The notes under the pieces are model-generated. The model was not told the origin of the DNA and ran no database searches. It saw only the letters and a program-made list of their open reading frames with translations. The translations under genes and the position numbers were made by a program. A stretch of DNA of 63,022 nt, counting the filler, from Stramenopiles sp. TOSAG23-6 (taxonomy: Eukaryota), in NCBI GenBank assembly GCA_900128565.1. It is 6 parts of 6 records of this genome, joined end to end, with 100 filler letters (N's around TTAATTAATTAA, not from the genome) between each part and the next. Parts side by side here need not be neighbours in the genome. Positions count along the whole stretch, not along the records: positions 10,543 to 20,978 come from LT636312.1; 5 more parts are not named here. The stretch is one strand, 5' to 3'. Positions within the stretch are counted from its first letter, which is position 1, and each line of letters begins with the position of its first letter. Positions 1-52,728 of this stretch are shown piece after piece.

Positions 1-137
1 TTTTTTTTTTTTTTTTTTTTTTTTAACCGAAAAAAAAAAAAAAAATCGAATTTATTTTTTTCAAAAAATTTTGTACCTAACAAATTTTTTTTTTTTTTTG
101 GTAAAAAAAAATTTTAAAATATTTTTCCAAAATACAT

Positions 138-721
138 GGTATGCGACTTGAAAAGGTTAATTTTACCCAAGTCCGCGATGAACATTTTACTGTCATTAGG
201 AAGTTATTACTACCACTGGTTAATGAGAAACGAACTTTCGTATGTATGTTTTATTTTTTTCATCAAGATATTTTTTCATACGAAATTTTGTACCTAACAA
301 TTTTTTTTGAAAATATTTTCTTACAATATATTTACTGGTCGAAATCCATTAAAAGTTGCTACACATCCATCATCGGTATCGATGCCAATGAAACTTGACA
401 ACAATCAAAACCAAACACAAACACAAATGCAAAACACATACAATACCGTATATTCCAAAAATTATGAAAATCAAAATCCAAGTGCACTTGAGTATAACAC
501 CATACATGTATTTTTTATTTTTTTTTTTTTCCGGTAAAAAAAAAATCGACTTTTTTTTTTTTTTTTTTTAAAATTTTTTCCCATAAAATTTTTTTTTTTT
601 TTTTTTGACATATTTTTCCAAAATACATGATTTCAAAGCATTTTTAAAAGGTCCTCCCACTTCAATTGGCGCGAGACGACTAAGGGCGAGAGAACAACTT
701 ATAACACAATTTGATATGTAA
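138..721 (+). CDS. 3' part of unknown protein; exons 138-243, 332-507, 629-721
   Basis: Removing two GT-AT introns gives one open frame (..KRTFV/FTGRNPL..NTIH/DFKAFLKG..FDM*). Preceded by a partial intron ending AAAATACAT at 137. Confidence 0.7.
244..331 (+). other. Non-canonical GT-AT intron (introner-like family)
   Basis: AT|GTATGT..CATACGAAATTTTGTACCTAAC..CAATATAT|TT; joins ORF frames 141 and 307. Confidence 0.8.
508..628 (+). other. Non-canonical GT-AT intron (interior probably mis-assembled)
   Basis: CAT|GTATTT..CCAAAATACAT|GAT. The mirror copy near 9630-9706 carries the hairpin and branch core. Confidence 0.65.
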
Positions 722-4389: not shown

Positions 4390-5072
4390 ATGGAGGAGTG
4401 GAGATTATTGATTCCTCTTTGTGTACTAGTGTACTGTGCGTTATATGTGAAAGGTTTTGCACCACCACATTTAGTACAAATTCAACCAAGTTTTGGTCCA
4501 GATCGAGGTGGAACTGACGTTTTAATAACTGGTAGAAATCTTGCTTTCCTTGAACAGGACATCAAAGTGTTTCTACGAGGAATCAAACGACAGCCTGAAA
4601 TCGTTGTTGGTTGGGAAAGCATACATCTAAAAATGCCATCATGCATTCGGTGCGGAACTGTACCAATCAATGTAATCGTTGGAAGCAAACGAAGTAATTT
4701 CTTGAATTATACATACACAAATGATTGTTTAGGCCCAGTCCAATCGGGAATTCCAATTTTACCACCACGCTTCTCAGAAAAAGAAAATTGCACATACGTT
4801 TTCATTTTTTTTTGTCTATTTTTTTTTTCGTACGAAATTTTGTACCTAACAAATTTTAAAAAAAAAAAAAAAATTTTTTTTTCACAATACATAATTTGCA
4901 CAGAACTTGTTCAATTGACTGAAGCAGCAGCACCAGATATGTCCACTTGGCAAGGTTTTAGAGAGACAATGCAGAGAGTTTGCAATACAATCCACTTTAG
5001 TAAATTTAAATATCCTGGTGAAATTTGTAAAGCTGATTATTCAATTGGTTGTCGTATATTAATGGCATCCAT
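4390..5072 (+). CDS. Secreted IPT/TIG plus saposin-B-like protein; exons 4390-4793, 4893-5072; truncated by the fold-back
   Basis: Signal peptide; PHLVQIQPSFGPDRGGTDVLITGRNL is an IPT/TIG signature; splicing yields a saposin-like CTICTELV..MQRVC..C..C pattern. Confidence 0.75.
4794..4892 (+). other. Non-canonical AT-AT intron (same family)
   Basis: AC|ATACGT..GTACGAAATTTTGTACCTAAC..CACAATACAT|A. 99 nt in frame; removal restores CxxC. Confidence 0.75.
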
Positions 5073-5184
5073 GTACGTTTTATTTTTTTTCAATATTTTT
5101 TCAATTTTTATTTTTTTTTCATACGAAATTTCGTATGAAAAAAAAATAAAAATTGAAAAAATATTGAAAAAAAATAAAACGTAC

Positions 5185-9535: not shown

Positions 9536-10305
9536 TTACATATCAAATTGTGTTATAAGTTGTTCTCTCGCCCTTAGTCGTCTCGCGCCAATTGAAGTGG
9601 GAGGACCTTTTAAAAATGCTTTGAAATCATGTATTTTGGAAAAATATGTCAAAAAAAAATCTAAAAAAAATCGTTAGGTACAAAATTCCGTACGAAAAAT
9701 AAATTCNNNNNNNNNNNNNNNNNNNNNNNNNNNNNNNNNNNNNNNNNNNNNNNNNNNNNNNNNNNNNNNNNNNNNNNNNNNNNNNNNNNNNNNNNNNNNN
9801 NNNNNNNNNNNNNNNNNNNNNNNNNNNNNNNNNNNNNAAAAAAAAAAAAAAAAATTTTATGGGAAAAAATTTTAAAAAAAAAAAAAAAAAAAGTCGATTT
9901 TTTTTTTACCGGAAAAAAAAAAAAATAAAAAATACATGTATGGTGTTATACTCAAGTGCACTTGGATTTTGATTTTCATAATTTTTGGAATATACGGTAT
10001 TGTATGTGTTTTGCATTTGTGTTTGTGTTTGGTTTTGATTGTTGTCAAGTTTCATTGGCATCGATACCGATGATGGATGTGTAGCAACTTTTAATGGATT
10101 TCGACCAGTAAATATATTGTAAGAAAATATTTTCAAAAAAAATTGTTAGGTACAAAATTTCGTATGAAAAAATATCTTGATGAAAAAAATAAAACATACA
10201 TACGAAAGTTCGTTTCTCATTAACCAGTGGTAGTAATAACTTCCTAATGACAGTAAAATGTTCATCGCGGACTTGGGTAAAATTAACCTTTTCAAGTCGC
10301 ATACC
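9536..10305 (-). CDS. Mirror copy of the 138-721 gene, spanning the N gap at 9707-9837
   Basis: Reverse complement of 138-721. Confidence 0.55.
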
Positions 10306-10442
10306 ATGTATTTTGGAAAAATATTTTAAAATTTTTTTTTACCAAAAAAAAAAAAAAATTTGTTAGGTACAAAATTTTTTGAAAAAAATAAATTCGATTT
10401 TTTTTTTTTTTTTCGGTTAAAAAAAAAAAAAAAAAAAAAAAA

Positions 10443-10542
10443 NNNNNNNNNNNNNNNNNNNNNNNNNNNNNNNNNNNNNNNNNNNNTTAATTAATTAANN
10501 NNNNNNNNNNNNNNNNNNNNNNNNNNNNNNNNNNNNNNNNNN
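10443..10542. other. Artificial contig linker
   Basis: 100-nt N run with central six-frame-stop TTAATTAATTAA. Confidence 0.98.
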
Positions 10543-11869: not shown

Positions 11870-14800
11870 ATGTCGAGGGAAAATTCACTGCATGAATATC
11901 GACGGCAGTCTCACAATCCAAACGGCAAGAGATCTATAAATTCTGCAGATAGTATCATCAATAACCGCTATATGATGGATATTTCTAATAGAAGCAACCA
12001 CGAAACTACACCTCCTTCAAGAGTGCGAAACTTCAATGCAGGAGTTACAAGCACGCAGTCGGATAGACAAAACGACCCTTCTGGTTCTCTGTCAAATCTG
12101 ATGCACTCTATTAGCGGAGCTGTTGGTGGATCAGCCACGTTTCATCTTCCAATTCAAAATACTAGAGTCCCAGAATATACACCAGGTTCACGTTTCCCTC
12201 AAACACCAGGGTCAGCTTTAAACGCAACCCTAGGCAATTTGAACCTTGGTACCGATGTCCCAACCTCGTTATTACCTATCAATCGTATAAAGAAAAAACA
12301 GTCTGTACATACTGTTTTAACAAGCAAGCCTCTCACCATTACGTATGGACATGAAATCAGCTTACGCTGCGGTGTCGAACGTGGTTTTCTCGGAGCAAAT
12401 GACAATGGTTCTTTAATAGTGTCTGGAACCGGAAATAATGCCGACGCCGAAATATTTACTCTTGTAAATATTCATTTAAGAAGTGATACAGGACCAGTTC
12501 GATATGGAGACTCTATTGCATTATGTAGTCACTCTTGTGGTGTTGGGGAAGGCAAATTTCTCGCTTGTGAAACTAATATCACTGATATTTCAAAATTACG
12601 TATTCCAGGAGGGGATCGCAAGAAAGCGTTAACTACAAAGTCTGGACCTGCTCTAAATCGCACTTCATTTGGATCTGCTGAAAAGTGGACTATATTGAGT
12701 GCAAGTACTCCTGGGCTAGACAGAAATTCCAAAACAAAAAATAGTGTAGTCTGTGCTGGAGATCGAGTAATCCTTCGTTGTATCCGTGGAACTTTTCTTT
12801 CTTCGTCCTCAATATCACAAAATCAACAAAACCAAAATATGCAGACGCCTATTCCGACTCTGACACCAAAATCAACATCCGCATCATGGATTATCACAAA
12901 AGGAAGGACTCCATGGATGCCTGATTGGTCGCGAACACGACTTTTTCTCACTGGTGATTTTCTTTCCTGTCCATCGATAAAAGATACTCAAACAAAATGT
13001 AGTGCTCCTGACCTAAATGATCATCCTTTGGAATTACAGGAACATATTATTATAGAAGATTTGCTATATACAATGGTAGGGATTGAAGGTCGCTATATAC
13101 GTATAATTGATACACCAAATATCTCTACCATGTCTCATTCTACTGAAATTACATTTTCTTTGGATAGTAATGTAATGGATGCTTCATTAGGGTTCTTAGT
13201 AAAACGCTTCTTACCTCTTTGTAATCATTATGCTTGGCTAGAACGTTTTGTTACCCGACATATGGGATATGAATTTGGAAGAACGGCTCATGCATTTTGC
13301 GCAGCTGTGAAACAACTCTTACGGGAATATGTACGTTTTCAAAATTTAATTTTCGAATTTTTTTTTGTACCAAATTTTGTACCTAACGAATTTTTACTAA
13401 AAATAATATTTTTCCAAAATACATACCTTACTAGTCACTCAACTAGAACACAAATACAGAATGTCTCAACTCAGTGTACAAAAACTTTGGTTTTATGTAC
13501 AGAATTCTTTGCATTTAATGCAATCATTGAAAAAAGTATGTATAGAAGCAGAGCATGAAGTGGGAGGAGCTCTTCTCAATGCGATCAACCGTGTGGCTAA
13601 ATTAGGAGGTAATGCAAATGCACAGCAGTTATTCCATTTTCTCACTAAAAAATCAGCCGCCCCATATTTACGAATGTTGGAACAATGGATCTATCGTGGT
13701 GTTGTAAATGATAATCACTCAGAGTTTATGATATCTGAAAATCGTCAATTGTCTAAAGAGCGACTAGCAGATGATTATAATGCACATTACTGGGATAAAC
13801 GTTGTACAATCTGTGATCATCAAGTACCATGGTTTTTAAAGCCTTATACCGCGAAGATTTTTACAACTGGAAAATATTTAAATGTCATTCGAGAATGTGG
13901 CCGAGCGATCGATTGTCCATTGATTACAATAGATTTTGTGTCAGCTCATAGTGGGTATAGCAAGATTATTGATGATGCAAACAAATTTGCTAGTCGAACT
14001 TTATTGGATATGTTACTTCAAGATGCGAAATTGATGGATCATTTAGCATCTTTACGACTCTTCTTTTTTCAGGCCAAGGGTGATGTTTTTGTTCATTTTA
14101 TGAATATAGCTTCTTCAGAATTGGATAAAAATTTTGTTGACATTGATATTGGAAAATTAGAATCATTGTTAAATGTTGCAATATGTGATACAACAATGGA
14201 TACTAATGCTGATCATATAACTTGTACCTTGGAACCTCTAAAATTATTTCATCTTCTAGAGGCAGTACATACTACATCTACTCAAGGTAGCTCCATTCCA
14301 CGTGGTCCAGGTGTTGACGCTCGAGATGCGGCAGTTGCAGCTCTTCGAAGTGCCCAAATGCATCAAAATAACTCTGTAAAAGGTATAGATAGCTTTTCTT
14401 TGGATTATCGTGTAGAATGGCCTTTATCGTTGGTCATTTCCCGACAAACAATTATCAAATACCAGATTTTATTCCGACATTTGTTTTTTTGTAAATATGT
14501 AGAGTGTCAATTATGTGAAGCGTGGGTACATCAACATACTGCTAAAGAGCTAAGTGTACAAGTCGCTATGAGAGTCAGTTATTGCTTGCGTCAAAGAATG
14601 CTCCATTTTGTTCAAAATTTAGTGTACTATGTTACAGTTGAAGTTTTAGAACCTCGTTGGCATGAAATGAAACAGAAATTACGCAAGGCTTCAACAGTTG
14701 ATGAAGTATTATCGTACCACAATGATTTTCTTGATTGCTGCTTAAAGGAAAGTTTGCTGACAAATCCTGTTTTAATTCGTTTATTGACTAAATTAATGAC

Positions 14801-18811: not shown

Positions 18812-19692
18812 ATGTTTGCCACAAAAGGTGAATATGATAGCGGTGTAAACACCTTTTCTCCAGAGGGCCGTCTTTTTCAGGTTGAGTATGCTATTGAGGC
18901 TATTAAACTTGGGTCTACTGCGATTGGAATCTGCACAAAAGAAGGAATCATCTTGGCTGTGGAAAAACGTCTCGAGTCTAAACTTCTGGAAGCAAGCAGT
19001 ATTCATAAAATCGTTGAAATTGATCGCCATATTGGATGTGCGCAGAGTGGTCTAACTGCTGATGCGACAACACTTGTGGAACGTGCCCGTGTGGAAGCGA
19101 CACAACATACATTTACTTATGATGAGCCTATGCCAGTTCGGTCTTTGACACAAGCAATTTGTGACATGGCTCTTAGCTTTGGAGAAGGCGGGGAAAAACA
19201 GATTATGTCTAGGTAAGTAACTATTTCACTTGGCATCTAATCATATTGTAAAATTCATTTGAAATTGTAACCTTCTTTTTTTGTTCTTTTTGTTGTATAA
19301 TTTTGTATTGAAGTAACCAAAACACTCATTTTTGTTTTATTTTTTTATACTTTTTCCATGAAAGACCTTTTGGTGTTGCCTTACTTATTGGTGGATGTGA
19401 TGAAAATGGCCCATCACTTTATCACACTGACCCTAGTGGCACATTTATTAAATATGATGCGAAAGCGACTGGTTCTGGTTCAGAAGGTGCTCAAAAGACT
19501 CTTGAAGATGACTATTCACCTGACTTCACACTCGAGGAAGCCGAACGTTTAGCAATGAATACTTTGAAAGAAGCCATGGAAGAAAAAGTAAGCTTAAAAA
19601 ACGTTGAAGTTGCAACAATTACACCCAAAGATGGATATAAACTTCACAGTAAAGAACAGCTTCAAGCTGCTATTGAAAGACTTGGTGCATAA
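18812..19692 (+). CDS. PSMA5: 20S proteasome subunit alpha type-5; exons 18812-19212, 19365-19692
   Basis: [50 protein letters not shown]. Confidence 0.96.
19213..19364 (+). other. Canonical GT-AG intron (the only one found in the window)
   Basis: AG|GTAAGT..GAAAG|A; restores MSRPFGV; lacks the family hairpin. Confidence 0.92.
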
Positions 19693-20370: not shown

Positions 20371-20932
20371 TTATTTTCCCTTTGGACAATTTTTTTTTTT
20401 ACATTGTGTACATTTGTTGGACCCATTACGGTACCCTCTTAGAGAACCATATCTAGCAGCATTCATACATCCAAGGACTTGACAGCGAAAACCACCACCA
20501 CATTTAGCACATAATTCATGGTCAATTATTGCGGTGCCATCTTTATTAGGACCACGTGCAGCATTTTTATTGCATATTTCTTTTTTATTGCCTATTTCTT
20601 TCAAGCATTTCTTTTTTTCTCTATGTTTACCACATACAACCAGAGGGCCCCTTTTGACTTTTGAAAACAATGCAATATTATCACAATTTTCTGCCTCACA
20701 TACTTTCCTACCCGTTTCCAAATTTCGATGCTCAGGACAAAGCTCTATGATTTGGTAATATATTTCAAATATTTGTATTTGTTAGTTTTATAAATTTCAA
20801 AATAAATTGAGGTTTTGAAAGAATATCAAAAAAAAATAAAATACTTGATTTTGATGCAGCTTTAGCAGTACATCCATCTTTTTCACATATTCCAGTACGA
20901 CCTCCATCGGGTTGATGCATACAACAATAATC
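20371..20932 (-). CDS. 3' part of a Cys/His-rich repeat protein (CxxxxC..CxxH units); tentative GT-AT intron at 20760-20844
   Basis: CEKDGC, LCPEHR, CEAENC..VCGKHR, CQVLGC. The intron candidate has GTATTT..ACTAAC..GAAATAT. Confidence 0.55.
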
Positions 20933-20978: not shown

Positions 20979-21078
20979 NNNNNNNNNNNNNNNNNNNNNN
21001 NNNNNNNNNNNNNNNNNNNNNNTTAATTAATTAANNNNNNNNNNNNNNNNNNNNNNNNNNNNNNNNNNNNNNNNNNNN
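20979..21078. other. Artificial contig linker
   Basis: N run with TTAATTAATTAA. Confidence 0.98.
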
Positions 21079-22013
21079 AAAGGTATAATGAATGAAGAAC
21101 TTCAATCTGTCGAAGAGTCGTTTGAGCTTGAAAGGGGAAAAAAAATTCAAAAACTGCGTCAGAAGTTTGAAGATAAAATTGAGAGTTTACGAAAACAACT
21201 AAATTCAGATTTGGCTGTTTTAAAAACAGATATTGAAATTAGACATTCTCAGGAAACCCAAGCTATACACAAAAAACATTCAAAAAAACTTTCCAAGTTA
21301 GAAATAGATGTATGATTTTATCATGAATTTCGAATTTATTTTTTTTCATACGAAATTTTGTACCTAACAAAATGTTTTTTCCGAATTTTTTTTTCACAAT
21401 ACATGCAAAACGCGCAATAGAATTATCAACAAAACTGAAAGCTAATTTAGTTGGCGGAGTTCCAAATATAAAAAAAGCATTTGCAGCACATTTCACAGCT
21501 TCACAATGCCGATTAAGTTTGAGATCCGCACTTTCAAAATTAGAGAATAATAAATCAGATATAGAAAAACAGATGTCCACCAAAACAAATCCTAACCCTA
21601 ACCCTAAAAAAAATATTAAAAAAACGCGTCCGCAAAGTTCGCGTTTTCCGTCTCGAATTTCTCACAGATTTAACGTTGAAAATGATGCTGTAAAGGGAGC
21701 ATTATCATCATTCAATAAGTGGGACCCTAACCCTAATATTACAGCGACCCCAAGAAATATCAAAATAAGATCACGAGCTTATACAGATAGAAGTCGACGC
21801 GCCACAATATCACCACATGCGAAGCATTCGTCAAATTTGGATGCTGCATTGAAAGGATGGAACACGAAATATAAAAGATTTGAAGTTTTGAACGATAGCG
21901 GAGGAATTGATAGTAGCGGCTGCACTCAACAAATTCGAAATTCGTTAGGCACAAAATTTGGTACAAAATTTGGTACAAAATTTGGTAGTATTGATGCACA
22001 CATCATAAAGTAA
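21079..22013 (+). CDS. 3' part of an unknown coiled-coil protein; exons 21079-21309, 21405-22013
   Basis: Two ORFs joined in frame by a GT-AT intron (LEID/AKRAIEL). Confidence 0.7.
21310..21404 (+). other. Non-canonical GT-AT intron
   Basis: GAT|GTATGA..CATACGAAATTTTGTACCTAAC..CACAATACAT|GCA. Confidence 0.85.
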
Positions 22014-28300: not shown

Positions 28301-31300
28301 ATTTGTACTAGTGCTCGAAGCACCACTAAATGAAAATGTATTCGTCTTTTTATCATTTTTTTCCAGGTAATCTTTCTTCGTATTCACAACATCATTACCA
28401 CTCATACTACTCGACGCACCTTCTAATGCAAATGCATTCATCTCACTAACTGTGGACTTATCTACTGATTTAAAGTTTTTCACAAATACAGGCGAGTTTC
28501 TTTTACCTGGTGACTCAGGGCTCAAACTTGTCATTTCAGCAGATTTGTTGCCAATGTTTCCAGATTTAGTTGGTGAAATGTTTTGAATCTCTTGAAGCCT
28601 ATCTTTGATTCGTTCCATGTGTTGCTGACTACGATTATACAATTCCAATCCTTCTTTACGCAATTTATTGGTTACACTGACACTATTCACCGATTTCGGT
28701 TTTATTTTTCTACCACCAGAATGACTACCATTAATAGCATTCCCGATTTGTAATAAATGATCGAGGAGATTTTTACTTACAGTTGGATTCGTATAATGTA
28801 ACTGGCGTATTTTAGTGATAGATACCGCTTTGGGTTTACCCGCGTTTACTGGTACTAGCCATTTATTGCCTCTATTGATTACATTTGACGAAGAAAGTTG
28901 TTTACTTGGAAAATAACCAACGTTTGTATTGCTAACTTTCGGACTAATAATATCATTAATATGCATTTTCAATTCCTGTGCATGATTGTAATGTTTTCGT
29001 ACAATTTCCATGACATGCGACGAAGTTTGTATATTCATAAATGAAGTGTGTCTTTTACTCCGAGTATTGCACGATTCCTGTCTTTGTTTTTCTAGTAATT
29101 TTGTACGTTTTGATACTTCTGACAGTCTTGAAAACACAAGTTTCTTCAAATCAAATAGTTTAGTTTTCATCGCTGCAAGATCTTCAGGAAGGGGTTGACG
29201 ATCAAGAAGTTCTGATAAATCCTTTTTCTGAGACAATATAATTAAACTGTGCGCCTCTTCAACACGGCGATCCACATTGATCATTTCTTGTTCGGTTTCT
29301 TTAACTTGCAACAAAGAAGCCGAAATACTAGATACAGCATCCTTGCAATTACGACGAGTCTTTTCTGTATTCACACTGAGTTCAGAAATAGAGTCAGCGA
29401 GAGAGTTCAATACATTATCGGTTATAGTTGGAACTTCTCTGAGTTTTTTTAACGTTAAATTTTCAAACATATCATTCGTTCGATCAAGAATTTCTTGTGC
29501 TTTGTCAACGGGTCCATCTTTTCGCTTTGTAAAATTTGAAGAAATATTATCAAATTTTGTCTCCCCTTTCAGCTTGTGTGTTTTAATTGTCGGTTCTACA
29601 CCAAATTTGGTACTTCTAAAATCACCACCAAATGAAACTGCATTTTTCTTTTTATCTTCTTCTTTAGGTTTCACATCAACTGTCTTTGTACTAGTGCTAG
29701 AAGCACCACTAAATGAAAATGTATTTGTCTCATCAACTGGAGCATTTCCGACTAAAGGTTGATCATTTACAGTAGTTTCTGTTTTGATTAGAGTCCCCCC
29801 CTCAGATTTTTCGTATTGTTTGGGTTCTATTAGAGTCTTCACAAGTTGTCGTCTGAGATCTTGCAACGTAAATAAACACAATTCTGCATCAGACGTCGCT
29901 ACTGCAACAACAGGACATGGCGGCAATGGCTTTTCAGCAGGGTTATCATCAGGTATTGGAGTATTTGATGTCAAAAGTAGGGAAATGCCCATACAAAATC
30001 CAGGGAATTCACCCTCATACCCATCACCTACCTTCATACAAATCCAAGACCCACTGCTATCATCAAAACCAACGACTTCTACTTCGGAGCTTTGATTGTG
30101 GCCTACTAAAATCATTCTCCACTCAGGAAAGAATGCCACATGAAATTTCGGCGAACCAGTCTCAGCATCAGTGTCAGGCACACAAATATGACCGAGTGAT
30201 TCGCACGAGTAACCACTAAATGACACAGACTTGTCACCCAATGTCCACATTGTTAAAACATGAGTCGTATCACCGTCTTCATCTTCGTACCCATAACCTA
30301 CTAACAAACTTTTAGTTTCAACCCATTTTACAAAAAATGCACGAAAAGTTGTTTTTTCTTCAACTTCTAGTAAGGCACATATTTTTTTAGGAAAAGATAT
30401 GGTTGTAATATTATCTACACGATTGTCCATTACTTGAAGAATTTCAATCATACCATTTTTCATACCTAAAGAAATACAATCTCCCTCCGGATTCCACGAT
30501 GCAGACATGTATTTTGGAAAAATATTTCAAGAAAAAAAAACTAAAATTTGTTAGGTACAAAATTTCGTCCAAAAAAAAATTTCGAATTTGAAAAAAAATA
30601 AAACATACATATACGGTGATTCCGATGAACGGCGAGCTACAACCGAACAATCTACATTTGCAATCGCTAATGTACCAGAAGATGATAAAGATAATAACTG
30701 AGACTTTGACCATTCTATCTGCTCAACTGCGACAGATTCACTTTCACTACATTGAAATGATCCAATTTCTTCTTCAGTGGACAACAAATTTGACATATTG
30801 AAGAGTGAAATTTTGCCATCAATGTTTGCACATGCGAGAGTGTTCGAATCTTTAGAAAGTGAAACTGCATCCATATTTTTTCCCAGCGAGTAGGGGTGAG
30901 CTAACATTGGAACTTTACCCGGATCTTTTATAGCATCTCGAGCAGCTTTTTCAATTTTACGACTGGAGCATCTCAGAAAGCCACCAGATTTGGCAGCAAT
31001 AACAACAGTTCCATATGTATCACTCACAGTGAGAGCATTACGTCCAACGCTATTTAATCCAGATGCACCGAAATTTAAACCACGATCAGAATCATCTTTA
31101 GAAAATTTCTTTAGTCGGAGCTCTTCTACTTGTATTTCATCAGACTCCGTAACCTTCACGACGATATCACTACTATTGCACTTTTCTTTATTTACACCGG
31201 ACTTTTTATTCTTCGCATCTACAACTTCTACTTGTTTGGTCTCTGTTGGAGTATTTACATTGGTATCATTTATCTTGTTTAGTAGTGTGTCTGTTTCACT

Positions 31301-31605: not shown

Positions 31606-31655
31606 GAAATTTTGTACCTAACGAATTTTTTTTGAAATATTTTTCCAAAATACAT

Positions 31656-34600
31656 GTATGGTTGCATCAATACTCCTTGCAGCACTATACAAACTCAGTA
31701 GTAAAGAATCTATGGATAGGGTCATGTTATATAGGCATTCTCGTGAAGATACTCGAGGTGAAAATATGTCTCATATTCAAAAAATGAATGTACACGAAAT
31801 AGTTTCTAATTTAAGAAAGCAAGGATGGAATTTTATAAAGCATGTAAAAACTCCCGTAGATGAATTTGATACAACAATTCCTACGAAACAACTCTTAATC
31901 AATTCTAAAAGAACATGGGAAGCTACGTATTTGAGAGTGATGACCAGTTTGCGAAAGGTTATCGTTGAAAATGGAGGATTCCAGGCCCTCACCAAGTTAC
32001 GTCGTTGTATTGAGAAATTTGGATACAACACAGAGATACAAGCAAATGATGTGGCATTACTTATAAGAGAGTGTAATTTTAATATATCTTTATCTTACGT
32101 AGAGGCCAATGCTGTTATTCAGGGATTAGCTAGCAAGTACGAAAAAAAACCAAATGCTATAGACTTACATAATACTATACAAGGGCTTGATATTCCAGGT
32201 GAAAAAGTCAGGGAAACTATTAAGATGGCGTTTGCGATGATTGGAACTGTTGGAGGAGACGAAGAACACAGAGGGTCTGATGGTCTAATTGTGGCTAATC
32301 AAATGGGGGGCGATGGCAGGGAAACCGTTACACTCACTGCAATTCAGAAGGCATTTAATAGCGACTATGATCATTTAGGTAAAGCTTTTAATTTGCCGCC
32401 AATCTTGCGAAATAGTTCTCAGAGTGTGGAGGAAACAAATTACGATTCTGCCGAAGCAAGATGCAAAGAAGAATGTGTCAGAGAAATATCAGAAGTATTT
32501 CGCGAAGCTGCGGGTGGAGGTAGTGATCCCAAAATTACTATTGGGGAGTTTGAAGACTATCATGCGGCTCTTTTGTATAGACATCATTTGTTGAAAGAAA
32601 TACATTTTCAAGAGGCATTAACTTCAACAAGAATGTCAAACACTCAAGTGGCACAGTGGCACAAAGTTTCAGCGATGAGGCGTGGAAAGGTCAAAGATCG
32701 TTTTGCCTCTGCTTTTAGGGCTTTGCTGTGGAATATTTGGCATTTAGAAAAAGCTCCATTTGTACCAGTATCCTCAAACACAGACAATATTCAGGCTCAA
32801 ACACTCTCTATGCAACCTAAATCTGTGGAGGAAGTTGTATCAAAATTGAAAGATATTCTCCATCTTGGTTTACATAAAGGCAGAGAAAAAAATGATGGGG
32901 TTAGGGGAATGCATGAATTTCGTCGTATATTGAAAACAGCAAGTGAATATACTGGTATGATATCATGTGACATGTTTGAAAGAATAATGGGTAGATTTTT
33001 AGTGCAACACCCAAAAGACTTGAGTTGCCCCCCACTGACATTTGCTGACATCCGGACACTACAAAAATATTATCAAAAATTACCTGGACCAAACAAAGTT
33101 GTTGTAGACACCGATCGTTTGTATTTGGATGTCATCGGTAACTACGACAAACTTCGTCGTCGTCTAGCAGAAAAAGCATTTTCTCATATAGATATTGGTA
33201 ACAATGGATCGGTGCCTCTTATAGAAATATTACAACTTTACAAAGCTGATAAGCATCCTGATGTATTGGCTGGGCGTCGAAGTATTAATGAAGTAGAAGA
33301 AGAATTGAAAACTTGCTTAATTGGAAAAAATGGATTGATTCAAATTAATGATTTTGAAGAATATTTCATGAAGGTATCAAGTGTTTCAGATGACGACAAA
33401 TACTATAATATGATTATATATAACTGTTTCAGACTTTTTGAATTACAACGATCTCGAAAACGCAGGTACGAGCAAAAAGAAACCTCACACAATACTGGAG
33501 GATATCGCAATTCATCATCAATAACTTGGGTACCACACAAAAATAAATCTTTTCTGTCTACTTTGACACTTGGTCATGGTATCGAAGACAAAACTTTAGA
33601 TCCAAAGTTTATAAACAAAAAAGTAGACCAAAAGTGCACTAGCGTTAATAATAAGTTACAAAATGAATCCGAAAAATTCAATGAATTCAATGCACTAATA
33701 AAACGCTTCCGATGTCTATGTATGTTTTATTTTTTTCAAATTCGAATTTTTTTTCGTACGAAATTTGGTACCTAACGATTTTTTTTTGAAATATTTTTCC
33801 AAAATACATTAGTTGAACGAGGAGTTTATGGTTACTTTAATTTACGCAATGCATTACACGCCGCAAGCTGTGAGAATCAGGGAATGCATTTTGTGACGTT
33901 TTCGAATATTTTACGAAATATTGGATTTGCAATTTCTGAAAATGAAATAAAGATTGTCTTTGATATGTTACATGACTCGAATGTACCGAAAGATATGATA
34001 GACGCCGATAAGTTTCTTAAAGTAATACGTGAAGGAATGATTGCTGCAAGAAGAAGAATAGTAAAGAAAGTATTCGAAAGTGTTTCTCAAAGAAAGTTGA
34101 AAAACAATGGTGGAAAGGTTTCTGATAGAGTTCCAGTGAAATGTTTTCATGAGATATATAATGCAGAAAATCACCCAGACGTTCTTTCGGGGACAAAGAA
34201 AGCGAAAGATATTTTGGATGAATTTAAGAACACCTTTCCATTGAATGGTACTATATCTTACAGTGATTTTGAATCGTATTATGAGGCTATTTCTCTTACA
34301 GTACCGGAAGTTAAACCTTCAGACAATAATATGATGATGATGATGTGGAAAGTTTGGGACTTGAATAAGACAAGAATTGTCAACAAAAAACACAAAGATG
34401 CAAAAATAAATTTTGGAAAAACTTCTATGTTTTCCGATAAGTATTCACACACATATAAATATCACACTGATTCGAATCATGTATCCAATATTCAAAAGCT
34501 GTCATCAGATGACCATGCAACAATAGGTGGAGGCAATACGCATAATGAAACTGCACATTTCAGAAATGAAGAGCAAAAAATGTCTAATCATTACCGCGAT

Positions 34601-35457
34601 GTTCGCTTACATAAAGCAAAGACTGGAATCCATAAAGGATTTGCATGTCCCACTACGTATAAGTATGTATGTTTTAATTTTTGAAAATTCGAATTTTGTT
34701 TTCGTACGAAATTTTGTACCTAACAATTTTTTTAGATTTTTTTTTGAAATATTTTTCCAAAATACATGCTGCTGGTACAAGACCACGGATTGTAGGGAAA
34801 GGACCGCGTGTTGGAGAACATGAATATCGTACAGGAAACCAATCAGTTAAAATAGAAAAACACAGTCTTCTTCAACGAATTCGAAGAGTTTTATGGCAAA
34901 TCAATGCACCAGGCACTTTGCATTTGAGAGCGGAGATGGAAAATCGCGATATGAAAATGCAAAAATGGCTTGAAAAAACGGAATTTATTGCAGCTCTTCG
35001 TGGAGTTCACTTAAACCTATCAGATACTGAAAATAAAGCGTTATATGGTTGGTACGCGAAAGATTTGCCAAGTAGAAAGTACTATACAAAAATCCAACAA
35101 AAACCAAATCTTCATAATGTTTTTATGTACGAAGAATTTTTAAGCGATTTGAATGGGAAGCTTTCAAAGCAGCGTAGGGACATCCTGGAGGATTCTTGGC
35201 AAAAAATAGACAAATATAAAAAAGGATACTTAACTCTTGACGATATTCAGCTTTCTTATCATCCCGTGTATGGCCATTTAAAGAAAGAGGAAACGGCAAA
35301 ATCGCTACCCAATAGACAAATAAATGAATTCAAAAGATATGGTAAAACAATTACCTTTGATGAGTTTTGTGATTTTTATTTGCATAAATGTGCCTGTCTG
35401 GAGGATACCCAGTACTTTCAGATGCTTGTCTGCAATGATTGGGGTATACAAAAATAA
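31656..35457 (+). CDS. Multi-repeat calcyphosin-like EF-hand protein, 5'-truncated; exons 31656-33719, 33810-34666, 34768-35457
   Basis: AFSHIDIGNNGSV, YKADKHPDVLAG, YNAENHPDVLSG, ITFDEFCDFY..DTQYFQMLVCNDW. Confidence 0.8.
33720..33809 (+). other. Non-canonical GT-AT intron
   Basis: AT|GTATGT..GTACGAAATTTGGTACCTAAC..CCAAAATACAT|TA; removes an in-frame stop. Confidence 0.87.
34667..34767 (+). other. Non-canonical GT-AT intron
   Basis: TAT|GTATGT..GTACGAAATTTTGTACCTAAC..CCAAAATACAT|GCT; joins two frames. Confidence 0.85.
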
Positions 35458-37234: not shown

Positions 37235-39019
<1,785 letters not shown>

Positions 39020-39282: not shown

Positions 39283-41978
39283 TTACATTTCTACTACAGT
39301 TTCCTCCTGAGTTTGCCATTTGCCTTCATTGATTTCAGCAACTGCTGTTTCTACGTTAGAATTATCTGGTAAAATTTCAACAGGTTCGCCTTCATTGATT
39401 TCAGCATTTGCTGTTTCTACATTAGAATTATCTGGTAAAATATCAACAGGTTCGCTGCTTCCCTCATGATGATCCACATTCCAACCATCGCCATCCTCTT
39501 CTTCATTTAATTGAGTTAGGAATGCACTCGAAGTATTTTTCTTGACATCTTTTATAGCTTCTTCTGTAGTCTCTTCCTCTGTCTTTGTAATATCATTTTC
39601 ACCTTCTTCTGTGGTCTCTTCATTTGGTTTTGTGTCTTCTTTTGCAGCTTCTTCTGTAGCTTGCTTTTCAGCCAATTGCAACTCGGCAGCCTCTTTTGCA
39701 GCTTCTTCTATAGCTTGCTTTTCAGCCAACTCAGCAGCTTCTTTTGCAGCTTCTTCTGCGGCTTGCTTTTCAGCTTCTTGTGCTGCTTCTGCTTCTTCTG
39801 CCAGTTTTTCAGCTTCTTGAGTAGCTTCTTCTGCAGCCTCTACGCCTGCACGGGCTGCACTTAGTGCTTCATCAATGGCATTTGTTATAATGGCTCTCGC
39901 TGCAGCTTTTGCTTTCTGAATAGCCGCAGCTTGTGCAGCAACTACTGCAGCTGCTATAGCTGCATTACGAAGTCTAACAGCTTCTTTGAGTTTCTTAATT
40001 TTTTTTACAGCTTCTCCAATTTCAGCTCGCTGTGTCTCGGAAACTGCTTTTAATATGTCAGTTCTTCTAACTAGTTCAAGAGTCTCCGCTTCCGTTTTCT
40101 CTATCCTTTCATCTATTTTTTCTATGCGAGAGTTCAGAATTGAGCCCTCTTTATCTATTACGTATTCGGTACTCGTTAGAGAAGACTTCATTCGTTTAAT
40201 TTCCCTTGGGGTTTCTGGAACTTTGCCAACCCATTCTGGGGTAACACCACATTTACGAAGTTTAAGCTCTGCGGCAAGTTTCCGACATGAAGCGTCAAGT
40301 CGTACTGATTTCATTTGAATTTCTAATCTCTCTTTTCTTTCGCGCCGTGAGTGTTTAGTATCATTACATTTTTGCATTTCTTCAAACTCATTACGCAGTT
40401 CATTCAATTCACTTAAAAGCTTTTCATATTCTGTTCTCTCTGTGGAAGGTTTTATTTCCATATCAATGGTACACTCATGAACATGTTTATATCTTTCAGC
40501 TATTGCTAAGGATTCTTCTTTTAGCATTCCATAAACTTTTCCAAGTTCAGCAACTTGATCTATTTTTTGCTGGCTTCGATCTCTCCAACTCATGTGAGCG
40601 ATGGTGTTGAAGTCAATGCTCTCACTAGGTGAATCTTCTATTTTTTCTGCTTGTACTTTTATCTGTTTTGGTTTTGTTTTCATCCTTTTTTGCTTTGGAG
40701 CCTTTACTATAGATGATACTGCATTTTGTTTCTGGTAATCCTTTACAAGTTGAATCAAGTGTTTTTTCTTCCCTTTAGTAGATAAACCAAACTCCTTACA
40801 ATAAGTTTTTAAAACCGCAACTTTCATTTTTTTTAATTCCTTATGAGTAAAAGCTACTTCTTTCTTGTATACCTGCTTTAGCTTGGACACTTTTTTTGTG
40901 GTACGTTTATCTGACTTTGATTGAGGGGCTTTAGTTGAATTTGATTGATTGACAAACATTTTATCATTTTTAACTTTTTTGCGCAATCGTTTGGAAGAGC
41001 CTATTTGACCGTCAAGTAATGTATTGTACCGCTTCTCTTGTTCCTCAAGTTCTTTTGCTTGTGCATTAACTAGACGAAGTTTATGTATTGTAAAAAATAT
41101 TTTTTTTTATTTTTTTTAGAAAAAAAATTCGTTAGAAGATATTTTACAAAATTTAGATGAGGTAAAAAGAATAAATTTGAAATTCATGATGAAAATGTAC
41201 ATTATCGGTTGTCTGTAATTTTCTTTTCATCGTGGCTACCAAATCGCCCTGATTGTCTTGTTTCCTTTGCTGAAACTCTCGCATTTGATCTTTCACCATG
41301 TATTGTGAAAAAATAATCGAAATTTGTTAGGTACAAAATTTGGTACAAAAAAAAACTAAATTTGAAATTTAGAATGAAAACGAACATCGCCCGGTCAACT
41401 TCTCCATTCAACTTACTACAACTTTTTCTAAGTTGCGCATTCATTTGTACGAGAGTCTCAATTTGAAGCATTTCATGTGAAAAATATTTCAAAATTGTAA
41501 ATTCGTTAGGTACAAAACCTTTGCATTGTCCATGAAGAAAACATCGTCTATTACGGAATTTCGTACGAAAAAAACAATGTCACAAAAAAAATGTAGGTAA
41601 AAAATGGATGATGAAAACGTATATTTTTTTTCGTATGATTTTAAGACTTCTCTCTTCAACTTTACCCAAGAGAAACGCCCGTCGGTATTCATGAGTTCCT
41701 TCAACCAATGGATTTCCATGTACTGTGAAAAACAATTCAAACATTTGAAATTCGTTAGGTACGAAATGTAATACGAAAAAAAAAAATTAAAAAGTCAATT
41801 TTGAAAACACGAAAAAACAAATTAAAATTAAATTTTGAAAACGTACGTGGCGATCGGCAAGTCTACCATCTTGTGTTCTATGCACTGGGCTACTACTGCT
41901 TCGAAGCTTGCTACCGTTGAATTCCTTTATTGATTTTATTGATTCAGTGCTATTTTCCTTTTCAGGAGTTGATATTAT
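39283..41978 (-). CDS. SAP-domain coiled-coil protein, 5'-truncated; exons 41978-41847, 41717-41623, 41469-41386, 41297-41201, 41082-39283
   Basis: LKKMKVAVLKTYCKEFGLSTKGKKKHLI (SAP). Removing four family introns gives one open frame. Confidence 0.8.
41083..41200 (-). other. Non-canonical GT-AT intron
   Basis: AAT|GTACATTTTCATCATGAAT..CTAAC..TACAATACAT|AAA. Confidence 0.8.
41298..41385 (-). other. Non-canonical GT-AT intron
   Basis: AT|GTTCGT..GTACCAAATTTTGTACCTAAC..CACAATACAT|G. Confidence 0.82.
41470..41622 (-). other. Non-canonical AT-AT intron
   Basis: AT|ATACGT..GTACCTAAC..CACATGAAAT|G; keeps frame IRKK-M-LQIE. Confidence 0.72.
41718..41846 (-). other. Non-canonical GT-AT intron
   Basis: CAC|GTACGT..CGTACCTAAC..CACAGTACAT|GGA. 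Confidence 0.82.
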
Positions 41979-42027
41979 ATGTATTTTGGAAAAATATTTG
42001 AAAAAAAAATCGTTAGGTACAAAATTT

Positions 42028-42127: not shown

Positions 42128-42180
42128 TGTACCTAACAAATTTTAGTTTTTTTTTTTTGAAATATTTTTCCAAAATACAT

Positions 42181-43334: not shown

Positions 43335-44833
43335 ATGTCACAACGTAATCCAATCGGCATATTATATACAAATGATATAAATTCGTCTTCTCCTGGTTCT
43401 CCTGAGGAGTCTGATGATTTTGTTGATCCTGTGCTGCCAAGTGGAGCAAATGATTTATATTTTGAAAATATAGAGGGTAACTATTGGAAAAATAATAAAC
43501 GTTTACATCCATACTCGAATGGTTGTAAAAAATACACATATAGTGTAGATGATCTTATACCGAAACTTGATACCAACGCTCGTAATGAAGCTACACATAT
43601 TGTCAAGGTTGATTTAGAGAGGCGATTCAGCAAGGAACAAAAGAAGAAGAAACATGTCCGTTGTATCGATTGTTGTACGTTTCATTTTTTTTTTTCAACA
43701 AAAAAATCGATTTTTTTTTCGTACGAAATTTTGTACCTAACAAATTGTACAAAAAAAACAAAATTTTTCACAGTATATGTTGTGCATTTTTTCATCGAGT
43801 GGAATTAGAAGTGGCGACGTTTTTTATATTCATTAGTACGACAATGCAATTATATTTTTTCGGATTGGTTGCGTTGCCAACAGTAGATGCAACTCAAATA
43901 CTTCCAACTACAATTCATCAAATTGGTGTTCTGTACGTTTTTTTTTCTCTTGAATTTTTTTTTCATACAAAATTTCATACCTAACGATTTTTTTTACCAA
44001 AATTTTTTTTTTTTTCACAATATATGGCTATATTGGTCATGTTAGTTATATTCGTTGCATGGATTTTGATAAAAAATGCTAGCGTTGCTTGTCATTTACG
44101 GTTTTGTTTTATTTCAACACTTATTATAACATCAATACAAATATATTTCGCTTTTATGGTAATTAAGGATACACACAATGCATGTATGTCTTCAAAAATT
44201 GACTTTTTTTGTTTTTTCAAAAAAAATTTCATTAAAAACATTTCATACGAAATTTTGTACCTAACGGATTTCAAACGTATTTGAATAAAAAACAATTCAC
44301 AATACATCATCTTCTGCAAGTCTTTTTCAATCGAACGAAAAGTTAATAGATGTATACGCATCAACAGAAAATACTTTGGAACATTTAAAAATTACACCGG
44401 AAGTATTAGACACATGTCCTGCTAGTGGTAGAGAAATCAAATGTGGTTGTATGTTGTATAAAAATATATTTTTTTTTTTCGGATTTTTTTTTTGTTTTTN
44501 GGATTTTGTTTTTTCAATTTTCTTTTTATTGAAATATATTTTTGAAATACATGCGATCCAAGTCAATATGATATAGCAGTAGCTATTGTCGCAGATTCCG
44601 GGGTATCAAATCGAACAAAAAATGATATCCAATGGGCTGGTTCTTGTATTGGTTTTGAGGCTCATTGCGAATCATCAGAAATAATTGGAAATTTTTCAGA
44701 AGATTGTAAAAAAAACACAAAAAATGGAGAATTTTGTTTAACATGTAAAAATGGATATGAAGGAGGATCTCTTTTATGTAATAATGATAAGCAATGGAGT
44801 ATACACAAATTTTGTGAAAATATAAATGTTTGA
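43335..44833 (+). CDS. Multi-pass membrane protein with Cys-rich C-terminus; exons 43335-43674, 43779-43932, 44026-44183, 44308-44448, 44553-44833
   Basis: Four family introns join five segments in frame; about three hydrophobic helices. Confidence 0.72.
43675..43778 (+). other. Non-canonical GT-AT intron (register-diagnostic)
   Basis: TT|GTACGT..CACAGTATAT|GT; sliding 2 nt upstream creates TGA. Confidence 0.82.
43933..44025 (+). other. Non-canonical GT-AT intron
   Basis: CT|GTACGT..ATACCTAAC..CACAATATAT|G. Confidence 0.8.
44184..44307 (+). other. Non-canonical GT-AT intron
   Basis: AT|GTATGT..GTACCTAAC..CACAATACAT|CA. Confidence 0.82.
44449..44552 (+). other. Non-canonical GT-AT intron; core motif absent, contains an N
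   Basis: TT|GTATGT..GAAATACAT|GC; opens a final exon of over 90 codons. Confidence 0.7.
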
Positions 44834-46624: not shown

Positions 46625-49600
46625 ATGACTTCGCGGGTGGTTGTTTCACCAGAAAGCGACACGAGTAAAGTACCAACTACATATGCTAATCAATCATTAA
46701 AGGCACATGCAAAAATTTTGTTTACACTTTCAAATCTCTCTCGAAAGATTTTAAAAAAGACTCGCGTTATAGCACCCAACAATGCAAAAAAAGGACGAAG
46801 CTCTGTCCGCCTCAAAGTTGTTTGGAATAAAGGAGAAATACCAAATGTCCCGTCAATTTATTCGAGTAATCTCATTCAATATGATAGAATATCTAAATGT
46901 CATGTACCATATATGCAACAGCGTGTAAATAAACGAAAGTATCCGCAAAAGGGTAGAAGAAATTCTCCATCTAAAAAGGCTAAAAAAGCAGTTAACGTTG
47001 TAAACAATATGAACGTAAATATCCTTCAGTATAATAATATTCCCCAGCATCATAGTACTTATGCATATAATATGTATCCACATGATATGAGATACAACGG
47101 AAATTTGCCATACATGCCAACTGCAGCTAATTCTACAACACACCCGCATCTTAATGGTACTGCGAATATGTTTAACAATGAAAATGCACTTTTACAACAA
47201 CAAAATAGACACACCAATAGAGTTAATAACAAAATGTATAATACCCCAGTACATAATAATATGAAACAATATAAGTATATACCACATCACAACATTAACA
47301 ATACGTACCCTATTGTACCTGCAGCAGACGGTAATTTTGTACTTAACCACAAACAAAATCTACAAAATCTACAAAATGCAGAACAACAAAACCTACAAAA
47401 ACTCAAAAAAAGTTTTGAAAACTCTCATCCTACAAAAGTCGATGATCCTTATACAGTTCATGGACTTTCACCTGATGATGTTTTGTTTGCATGTACAAAG
47501 AAGCGAAGAGAACGAATTCGATTACGTCGTAAGAGAGCTTTACGAGCTACACGAAATAAGCCTAAAAAACTACAAAAAACATCGAATGCTTCAACAATTG
47601 GAGGCAAGGGCAATAGAAGAGGTACAGCAGCTGAAAGAAGAGCACGAGCACAAGCAGAAGAACGCGTGGTTCTTGCGGAAGCTAACAAAAAGTTAAAGAC
47701 AATACAAAACGAGTTGGCTGTGTATAATGTACGTTTTTTATTATTTCGTGTTTTTTTCTTTATTTTTTTCGATTATTTTGTTTTTTTGAATGTTTACATT
47801 TTTATAATTTCACAAGTAACAAAATTCTTACACTGTACATTGCAAATGACAAAAATAAATATATGTTTCTCATTATATGTTATCCGTGATACCGAACAAG
47901 AATTAAATATTAGAAAAGCATTACTAAAAGCGTATGAATCTTTAGTAATTTCAATGAAAAATATTTTTGAAATGGAAGAAAAAAATAGAAAATTAGCTTT
48001 ACACACGAAATCACAGAAAGTATTACATCTTATTGAACAATGTCGTCTTTTATATACAAAAGAGTATACAGAAGCAAATAATGGTTCACTTAGTGTAGCT
48101 GAAGAGCATTTGTTAGTGACTAATCACGTGAAACAGTTAAAAACGATACAACAACAAAAAAAAAAGTGTAAAAAAATGTTTGAAGATGTACTCCAAGAGT
48201 TGAGTGATTCATCAAATACACGAAATCTTTTACATTTAAAAATGGAAAGAAAAAAATATCTCAGTGAAAAATATACAATAATGTGTTTGTTTTCATTTCA
48301 AATGTTTATTTCAAATGTTTATTTCAAATGTTTATTTCAAATGTATTTTTTTTTTTTTTTTTTTCATACAACATTTCATACCTAACAAAAAAAATCAAAA
48401 AAAAATATTTTCCAAATATACATGTCAACAATTACAAACATGGGAATCTAAAACAGAACAAGATCTTTTGGATATTCAAAATAATTTAAAAAACAATAAA
48501 AAAGTATTGCATTCTTCATCAAACGACATGAATGATGAACAAAATTCACAACATTCAAAAAATTCAAAAAATTCAAAAAATATGGATTCGCAATTGTCTA
48601 CTTCTACAGAAACTACAAAAACTACAAAAACTCAAACAACGGAAAGCAAAATTTTTGTTCATTCTTTAGAAGATTTTCGTAATTTAACAAATCTTGCGGC
48701 AGTTGATACTTCTGCTAATTCAAGCACACCTCGAGGTACAATTTTTCTACGTAAATCGAAACAATCTTATGAAAAGAATGAAGAAAATATTCAAAATGAT
48801 GAAACATCAAAATCAATAAAAAATAATGGAGTTGAAATTCAAGTAGGAAAATTTGTAGTGAAAACAGAAAGTCTACACTCAGATGAAAGGGTACAAAATA
48901 ACAATATTTCGTCTTTGAAATCATCTGAACAAACAAATTCGTCTTTGAAAGCATTTGAACAACGCGAAATTGGTCTTTCAGAACGATTACGAGAAAATGG
49001 ATTACCACTAAAACATCGAAATGCTTTATTACGTGATAGCATTCTTCGTGAAGGATCAAAAATTATGTCTGGATTTCGTGCATTGGAGGCAGAGCGATTG
49101 CTTGCCATACAACGTGAAAAACGAAAATCAAAAGATGAATTTTTTGAGGCATCAAAACGACAACAAATGTCAATTTATAGACATTTAAAAATGCAAGAAA
49201 AAAAAAAAGAACATTTAAAAGCGGTACGTTTCCATCTTTTTTTTTTTTTTTTTAACATTTTTTTAACATTTTTTTAAAACTTTTTCATCATTCATTTGTA
49301 AAATATCTGATATTTTTTTGTCTGTACACTAACGAATTTTCAGATTTTATCTATTTTTTTACAAAACATGTACAAAAAAAAATGTTAGAACAATTAAAAC
49401 TTCGACAAAGTACAGAAATTACAAAAAAAATGAAATCTTTACAAAATGAAACAGCTGATGTCAAAAAAACACATCTTGAACAATTACAAGCTACACATCA
49501 ACAACATATAAATGAATTATTAAGAATTCAAAAACAACAATGTGATACATTAGATATAAAACAACGTAAAGAAATTGAATTAAATATAAACAATAACAAG

Positions 49601-52643: not shown

Positions 52644-52728
52644 TCAAAAAAAAAAACTAAAATTTGTTAGGTACAAAATTTCGTACGAAAAAAAAATTTA
52701 AAAAAACATTTTTAAAAATAAAACATAC

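Follow-up and report, generated by a model that had tools for sequence, protein, structure and literature searches.

GT..AT introns of a repeated family in Stramenopiles sp. TOSAG23-6 and the AT/G bias at their exon borders

The DNA analysed here (63,022 nucleotides, hereafter the window) stems from assembly GCA_900128565.1 of Stramenopiles sp. TOSAG23-6. Its six contigs, each 10,379-10,442 bases long, are arranged in order of decreasing length and connected by linkers of the form N44-TTAATTAATTAA-N44 (10443-10542, 20979-21078, 31506-31605, 42028-42127, and 52544-52643), and neighbours across a linker are unlinked. The GC content of the window is ~0.26-0.44, long open frames in the standard code indicate a gene-dense eukaryote, and contigs from seawater metagenomes match the exons with few differences (for example, 3 differences over 1,594 bases). 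A gamma-tubulin-complex gene in the second contig contains a 94-nt intron of phase 0 on the plus strand (13331..13424), which reads GTACG...ATACAT, is bordered by the exon sequences ..GAATAT upstream and ACCTTA.. downstream, and separates the codons for LREY from those for TLLVTQLEH. Because both the upstream exon and the intron end in AT, this intron can be read as GT..AT, TG..CA, or AT..AC. An earlier reading, made from the sequence alone (the sequence-only reading), had marked the span 13329..13426 and described a preference of such introns for AT/G, where the slash separates the end of the upstream exon from the start of the downstream exon. The intron lies within that span, which is wider by the exonic AT on one side and by two bases of the downstream exon on the other. 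In the GT..AT register, the exon flanks of this intron are AT/A.

The intron belongs to a repeat family that was found through an internal TTTGTACCTAAC box and then with a profile built from ten clear copies. Introns were mapped by combining the profile with a splice-site matrix and an open-frame test, and by inspecting every frame switch between coding open reading frames. Complete introns of the family number 27 and measure 88-179 nt; a further six copies are cut by contig ends or by a foldback. These similar copies are spread over the six contigs and at least 12 unrelated genes and make up 33 of the 35 introns seen in the window. Copies found by the profile always lie on the sense strand of their gene, and identity to the nearest neighbour among the 27 complete copies is 0.67-0.88. 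The termini are GT..AT in 24 and AT..AT in three of the complete introns. In 26 of 27 cases the boundaries were drawn with a unique or available open frame over the joint, and the reading frame is restored across these 26 joints; the 27th boundary is that of an intron directly before a stop codon (the last intron of the Kae1 gene described below). Two calls are uncertain, namely the donor at 38277 or 38271 and the intron 52752-52930, which is probable only. In seawater DNA and RNA runs, contig depths add up to 10^3 to 2x10^4 over intron copies, compared with 1-10 over exons (bins 33694-34041, 34390-35085, and others), and the family or its relatives are very abundant in those samples.

The family consensus starts with GTAYGTTTT(A/C)... 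and continues with CGTACGAAATTTTGTACCTAAC, a T-tract, and GAAATATTTTTC(C/A)(A/C)AATACAT. Its ends are inverted (GTAY...RTAC). When positions +1 to +4 are set against -3 to -6, the pairs G-C, T-A, and A-T occur in 18, 26, and 19 of 27 copies, respectively, and the +4/-6 pair is T-A in 10, C-G in 5, and C-A in 8 copies, T-G never being seen. At the 3' end an AT is located directly outside this GTAY/RTAC symmetry, and in 17/27 copies the same holds for the 5' end. G1 and T2 are retained in 24/27 copies, and the other three carry A at the first position: 4794..4892 (+, AC/A), 41470..41622 (-, first base 41622), and 50534..50628 (+), which lies between the Gly codons GGA and GGT of a first HGGGKRC repeat. 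A first-base A combined with a last-base T seems to be tolerated. The donor resembles that of U2-type introns, with G at +5 in most copies and T at +6. The last CTRAY (CTAAC) box is found 29-49 nt (median 38) upstream of the acceptor in 22/27 copies. Between this box and the acceptor, nine of the 27 copies skip an AG, with RNA support at 37859-37947 and 41718-41846. The skipped AG often lies within TTTTTCACAG after the T-tract, five bases before the AT (37941-37942, 38978-38979, 41723-41722 on the minus strand, 43773-43774, and others). In intron 41470-41622 the acceptor is GAAAT, five bases past the usual CACAT.

Canonical U2-type GT-AG introns are not matched, as AT forms the 3' end in 31/31 copies (cut copies included) and the first AG is not used in 9/27. 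The terminal pairs GT-AT (24) and AT-AT (3) are competent for U12-type splicing, but the donor is RTAYGTTTT instead of RTATCCTT and the box TTCCTTRAC expected ~10-20 nt from the acceptor is replaced by CTRAY at 29-49 nt. A loose TTTTCCAAAAT / TTTTCACAAT motif adjoins the acceptor and differs from the U12 branch consensus. RNA folding paired the ends in only 6/27 minimum-energy folds, with z-scores mostly between -2 and +1. There is no consistent closing helix and no case for an excision defined by structure. A search of the window against Rfam at the gathering threshold gave no match.

The position of the cut was examined with RNA and protein evidence. The RNA evidence consists of assembled metatranscriptome contigs, raw reads not included, which were mapped to positions 31606-42027 and evaluated as coordinates; uncovered parts of this stretch are uninformative, and most of the listed joints are cross-matches between intron copies at different places. 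The RNA contigs skip or stop at six introns. One contig (X9 record 28) spans 37946-38107 with no differences, keeps the exonic AC at 38106-38107, and stops before the following intron. A second contig (X9 record 31) consists of 41623-41716, 85 letters, and 41205-41296, with 0-1 differences. The 85 letters fit the 84-nt exon 41386-41469 plus one ambiguous G, and the introns 41298..41385 (-, GT..AT, AT/G) and 41470..41622 must therefore have been removed; the latter, an AT..AT intron with RNA support, was placed by this letter count and by the only open frame. Intron 41718..41846 (-, GT..AT, AC/G) lies between RNA contigs that end at 41716 and 41846, the latter (X6 record 16) spanning 41846-41980 with 0-1 differences; the exonic AC is thus retained in the RNA, and splicing passes over the AG at -5. 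A further contig (X6 record 15) ends at 41082, next to intron 41083..41200 (-, GT..AT, AT/A). In a seawater DNA run, at least 35 and at least 29 contigs from other loci begin to match two bases before 33720 and 38861, respectively, and an AT is thus included at those other loci too. Among the 15 of 408 DNA joints listed, none skips exactly one intron.

The Kae1/OSGEP gene (37262-39025, +) provides the protein evidence and contains six GT..AT introns. These are 37646..37742 (AT/T, within VNH/CVGH), 37859..37947 (AT/T, with an AG 5 nt before the acceptor skipped), 38108..38205 (AC/G, the exonic AC being kept in the RNA contig), 38277..38390 (GC/G, or exon end CA with the alternative donor 38271), 38541..38688 (splitting a conserved Met codon as AT/G), and 38861..38983 (AT/G, AG at -5 skipped). 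The Kae1 exons match stramenopile proteins, the best matches being marine sequences at 80% identity and the coding sequence (CDS) P0010 (source label GSMAST32...). At 5/6 junctions, the spliced product aligns colinearly with the orthologues of oomycetes, Blastocystis, and marine relatives; at the fourth junction the donor 38271, six bases upstream, fits the orthologue length better. CDS P0010 matches the exons of the window and has extra residues at all six introns that correspond to translated intron sequence (compare the open frame 37641-37910). The published gene model P0010 is wrong, and the family evidently misled a gene finder. At the Kae1 sites, the AT sits in codons for residues that are conserved in distant orthologues (His CAT, Ile AT/T, Met AT/G, and Asp GAT), which argues that AT was present there before the insertion.

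Sequence conservation, the RNA contigs, and the Kae1 protein together place the cut at GT..AT. In principle the AT-flanked copies could be AT..AC introns (ATGTAY...RTAC) with an exonic downstream AT, and for the 17 copies concerned both registers would yield the same mRNA. This shift is very improbable, however, as the upstream AT varies (10/27) and the downstream AT never does (31/31), G1 and T2 are kept in 24/27 copies with A1 in the three exceptions, and the RNA contigs keep the AC at 38106-38107 and do not reach 41718-41719. As an exonic AC is retained at two junctions without AT, the cut is GT..AT and not the shifted AT..AC. In an AC..AC or AT..AC register, AT would have stood in the RNA where these two exons have AC. 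The sequence-only reading had proposed that the intronic AT is the more conserved and hence the functional copy; this agrees with its presence in 31/31 copies, compared with 17/27 for the exonic AT, and with RNA contigs that are cut after the intronic AT.

With the register settled, the exon flanks of the 27 complete introns can be compared. The upstream exon ends in AT in 17 of them, in AC in three, in TT in two, and in GC, CT, GT, CG, and GA in one each. The first base of the downstream exon is G in 19, T in four, A in three, and C in one. Adding the one-sided copies gives AT at 19/29 exon ends and G at 22/31 exon starts. Earlier counts of 17 AT and 19 G among 28 introns are thus upheld by an independent map. 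In the coding background (36.6 kb in-frame), P(AT) is 0.093 (0.134 in the highest codon phase) and P(G) is 0.194 (0.281), and the binomial p for the observed flanks is about 1e-11 for AT and 1e-8 for G, or 3e-9 and 6e-6 with the worst-case phase. AT at exon ends hence lies far above the coding level. Within coding sequence, AT precedes GTA at a frequency of 0.096 and G follows AT at 0.248, which does not explain the excess. The bias is confined to positions -2 (A 20/27), -1 (T 21/27), and +1 (G 19/27); positions -12..-3 and +2..+12 of the 27 introns show none. AT and G lack a positive association (10, 7, 9, 1; Fisher p=0.19). The AT/G flank is thereby confirmed as real and strongly non-random. 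Chance, or an artefact of drawing the boundaries, is a negligible explanation: the boundaries of AT-flanked copies are indeed ambiguous by two bases, but the repeat is present in the DNA in any register, the binomial p values are 1e-11 and 1e-8, and the flanks played no part in finding the introns, for which the profile and the open frame were used.

Besides the copies already described, AT precedes the GT..AT introns 244..331 (+, AT/T), 508..628 (+, AT/G), 21310..21404 (+, AT/G), 30507..30608 (-, AT/G), 33720..33809 (+, AT/T; the top match to the family profile), 34667..34767 (+, AT/G), 44184..44307 (+, AT/C), the diverged 47729..47878 (+, AT/G), and the probable 52752..52930 (-, AT/G). The last of these is followed by a putative 25-nt exon (52727-52751, -), which from its sequence may stand between two family introns as GTACAT/gcaaaatattttgtacagtttat/GTATGT. 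GT..AT introns with other exon ends, all on the plus strand, are 43675..43778 (TT/G), 43933..44025 (CT/G), the diverged 44449..44552 (TT/G; contains one N), 48285..48423 (GT/G), and the diverged 49224..49369 (CG/G). The earlier list of non-AT ends stands for AC (three), TT (two), and CT; it differs slightly in the rest, the independent map having one GT instead of two, no AA, and in addition GC, CG, and GA. GAC at 38105-38107 and CAC before 41846 are present in the sequence as previously described.

Two introns of the window end in AG and coexist with the family. The canonical GT-AG intron 19213..19364 (+) of a proteasome alpha-5 gene reads AG/GTAAGT..AAAG/A, and in an alignment with the yeast subunit the two exons cover residues 1-135 and 137-242, one residue being left for the split codon. 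The GT..AG intron 20745..20844 (-) reads AA/GTATTT..CAAATCATAG/A (..ATCATAG/A) and keeps the frame only with the AG, not with the AT two bases earlier. By eye it resembles a worn family member (GTATTTTATTTTTTTTTGA.., AAACTAAC, and ..GAAATATATTACCAAATCAT plus AG), and an nhmmer search did not detect it as part of the family. With exon ends AG and AA in the same window, AT/G cannot be a proto-splice site that applies genome-wide. These introns bear on the possibility that selection maintains AT/G because the spliceosome requires it, as an exonic signal that forms a proto-splice site specific to the lineage. The restriction of the enrichment to the three bases that touch the splice sites, and a G at +1 that is commoner in the more diverged copies, would fit such a signal. 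Against this, 10/27 introns lack the exonic AT and two of these were seen spliced in RNA contigs, and the two GT-AG introns end their exons in AG and AA. In pairing with U1, moreover, T at -1 performs worse than G. An exonic signal is therefore an improbable explanation, and the proposal of the sequence-only reading that AT/G is this system's proto-splice site is rejected as a main explanation; the exonic AT is also dispensable for splicing.

Instead, the AT/G flank very probably is a landing mark, the insertion footprint of a mobile intron. Whether it reflects, more specifically, a 2-bp duplication of an AT target is evenly poised. The element proper would be a small non-autonomous introner, GTAY...RTAC, with a yeast-like donor GTAYGTTTT, a central GTACGAAATTTTGTAC palindrome leading into a branch-like TACCTAAC box, a T-tract, and the end ..CA(A/C)AATAC. 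Transposing at the DNA level, it would integrate at AT, most often in ATG, and the duplication of two bases would leave an AT on both sides and extend the inverted ends to ATGTAY...RTACAT. The spliceosome would cut before G1 and after the downstream AT, accepting this AT past an AG. One AT would then leave with the intron and one would stay in the mRNA, so that the original frame would be restored. The downstream AT would be kept by selection as acceptor, and the upstream AT would drift under coding constraint only. In two of the three AC flanks, the C is the third base of a codon, GAC (Asp) and CAC (His), as decay of an AT would give. A precedent exists, in the available part of the published account, in introner families whose donor is part of the element and whose acceptor is supplied by the duplication; the same part notes that a constant repeat leaves duplication and fixed target ambiguous from the flanks (Gozashti, 2022).

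Several observations weigh against a duplication. Among the 27 copies, matches at neighbouring positions are no more frequent within loci than between them; as the repeat is identical in all copies and offers no locus-specific match, a duplication is not separable from a constant target. At 50534, the four intron-less paralogous repeats of a five-fold HGGG[KR]RC motif read GGA/GGG, GGT/GGC, GGA/GGA, and GGC/GGA. The insertion site thus lies in a conserved GGN/GGN, position -2 was G, and the site was never AT. At 43675, an ancestral AT would produce a stop codon. This argument builds on the open frame, as a search with the first exon of the 43176 gene detected no relatives of greater length. 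Restoring AT would be synonymous in only 3/10 of the non-AT flanks, and the other seven need amino-acid changes. Divergence of the copies is not significantly related to loss of AT (p=0.42 for nearest-neighbour identity, p=0.13 for profile score); the seven copies with the highest profile scores are all AT-flanked, but these seven are also the profile seeds. G at +1 occurs in 3/7 of the best-conserved copies compared with 16/20 of the others, and the mirror C at -3 in only 5/27; being rarest in the best-conserved copies, this G is not part of the duplication. Each of the 33 copies that include a terminus lies in a gene and in sense orientation, and no full-length copy is intergenic or antisense; elsewhere there are five core fragments (853-907, 921-963, 21938-21983, 35539-35582, and 62321-62361 with 62555-62605). 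We know of no transposon superfamily that makes an AT duplication, and neither a transposase nor an empty allele or polymorphism was seen in this analysis of the window. In the sequence-only reading, one model had an element with GTA..TAC ends duplicate an AT target. One family with such ends does exist, but the site at 50534 and the stop codon at 43675 speak against a strict duplication.

Alternatively, the element might be GTAY...RTACAT, carry its own AT acceptor, and prefer AT/G without being limited to it, moving by DNA or by reverse splicing into transcripts. The likeness of exon end and intron end would then be due to target choice or to a 2-nt microhomology. This alternative has a substantial but clearly smaller probability than the duplication. 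It accommodates the sites 50534 (never AT) and 43675 (AT a stop codon), the absence of an age trend among the copies, the confinement of the 33 terminus-bearing copies to genes and sense orientation with only the five core fragments elsewhere, and an intact fraction of 17/27, which is low for sites under coding constraint. A bias for genes and sense orientation that occurs without target site duplications has been taken as a sign of RNA-based spread in fungal introners, according to the accessible part of one study (Gozashti, 2022). However, a one-sided AT would break the symmetry of the GTAY/RTAC ends, the AC flanks resemble a decayed AT, and a retention bias in a compact genome can explain the genic and sense bias. 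The window is also small. The orientation bias itself fits either selection and retention or an RNA-level route. One antisense core fragment (21935-21990), present as three repeats (GGTACAAAATTT), belongs to the open frame of a plus-strand gene, where it encodes the C-terminal GTKFGTKFGTKF.

Other target registers were considered and rejected. A TA duplication, as made by miniature inverted-repeat elements of the Tc1/mariner type, is not supported, as the repeat is AT and the TA register would place ATG/CAT outside the element at every site. With TA, a 3-bp ATG duplication, or a palindromic CATG target, the ends lose their symmetry, the best-conserved copies are often without the +1 G, and C at -3 is found in 5/27. 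Helitrons insert between A and T and have a 5' TC, a 3' CTRR with a hairpin, and no inverted ends. The ends here, (T)GTAY...RTAC(A), are inverted.

Six copies are incomplete. Parts from the 3' end of the intron lie at contig starts or ends in 1..137 (+; next exon starts with G), 31606..31655 (+; G), 41979..42027 (-; A), and 42128..42180 (+; G). Parts from the 5' end are found in 5073..5128 (+; exon end AT), where the contig folds back in the central palindrome, and at the contig start in 52644..52726 (-; exon end AT). At least five contig ends (1, 31606, 42027, 42128, and 52644) are located within intron copies, so that the assembly is broken by the family. The first contig (1-10442) is a near-perfect foldback that equals its own reverse complement between ~600 and 9660; its centre (~5128) falls in the CATACGAAATTTCGTATG palindrome that one intron copy contains. 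It is likely an amplification product or an assembly chimera. The outer ~600 bases differ between the arms (an N-run on one and T-runs on the other), and in intron 508..628 the core is replaced by T-runs in this half of the foldback. Owing to the self-complementarity, introns of this contig were counted once, and copies in the mirrored half (5129-10442) were left out as duplicates. The minus-strand gene that contains intron 30507..30608 encodes a nucleoporin-like FG-repeat protein; it has 1,737 or more codons, with ~500-bp tandem repeats at 25316-27700, and only this one intron in more than 5 kb of coding sequence. Short telomere-like runs occur between genes ((TTAGGG)x3, 46345-46365) and in a coding region (CCCTAA-like, 21591-21610).

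Introners, as described by Huff and colleagues in 2016, are reportedly transposon-derived intron families of algae and protists. In the tunicate Fritillaria, a genome-wide take-over by non-GT-AG introns is said to be linked to small transposons and to a changed recognition of the 3' site. Fritillaria is an animal, reportedly with many terminal pairs, in contrast to the single family with a single pair in the stramenopile. In the portions of the surveys available, introners share with the present family the many similar short introns in unrelated genes, short inverted ends, and a direct repeat over the exon-intron border, of which one copy is spliced out and the mRNA restored, one splice site being borne by the element and the other contained in the repeat (Gozashti, 2022, 2025). 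Published introners use GT, GC, or GA donors and AG (or AC) acceptors, as far as those portions list them, whereas the present family has an AT acceptor in 31/31 copies and a repeat that consists of AT and contains no AG. The accessible part of the later survey names only AG and AC as 3' sites and states that mostly non-canonical families needed manual checks (Gozashti, 2025). The non-canonical introners of Amoebophrya, another marine protist, are likewise repeated non-GT-AG introns with inverted ends and 3-5 nt repeats at the borders; in the part of the report at hand their borders and dinucleotides are highly variable, hairpins comprise 8-20 nt, and parts of U1 are apparently missing (Farhat et al., 2021). 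The family described here, by contrast, is uniformly GT..AT (or AT..AT), has a U2-like donor and a branch box, and shows end pairing of only ~4 nt.

Similarities also exist to U12-type introns. Their GT-AT and AT-AT forms can be spliced by the minor spliceosome, and a switch between G1 and A1 occurs within the class, according to the section available (Sheth et al., 2006). From the available part of a preprint, U12-type introns of Physarum may derive from a transposon that has inverted ends and duplicates TA (Larue et al., preprint). The donor here is RTAYGTTTT, however, not the RTATCCTT or RTATCTTT of that class, and CTAAC lies 29-49 nt instead of 9-20 nt from the acceptor. A 17-nt core of the element was found at 64 loci in metagenome contigs of all kinds of habitats, and its pattern at six loci in viral contigs. 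The 64 loci were rejected as relatives and attributed to chance, as the profile matches were of core length only (E 3e-4 to 6e-4) and included no full copy. A literature search found no report that joins introners with marine stramenopile groups or describes this GT..AT family, and two genome papers on such groups contain no such introns in the main text (supplements not covered). Among U12-type introns, GT-AT and AT-AT occur as rare terminal pairs, and they are also known from Physarum; non-canonical introners are known from Amoebophrya, but a uniform GT..AT introner family appears to be undescribed so far. It is conceivable, though on balance doubtful, that more than nine-tenths of the introns represent one mobile element with a U-ending acceptor at which nearby AGs are skipped, and that this is the first introner family with an acceptor other than AG or AC.

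Bursts of intron gain are at present best explained by introners, and the known families fit GT/GC..AG (or AT..AC). A family with an AT acceptor would show that the target duplication of a transposon can impose a new splice-site dinucleotide on a genome. If true, 3' sites would be chosen independently of AG by a changed major or a transformed minor-type spliceosome, and the organism would offer a natural system for studying 3' site choice without AG. The family would also explain the broken public gene models of the lineage. Gene prediction that presupposes AG does not work here, and as the public Kae1 CDS P0010 translates all six introns, proteomes and gene counts of this lineage are probably distorted.

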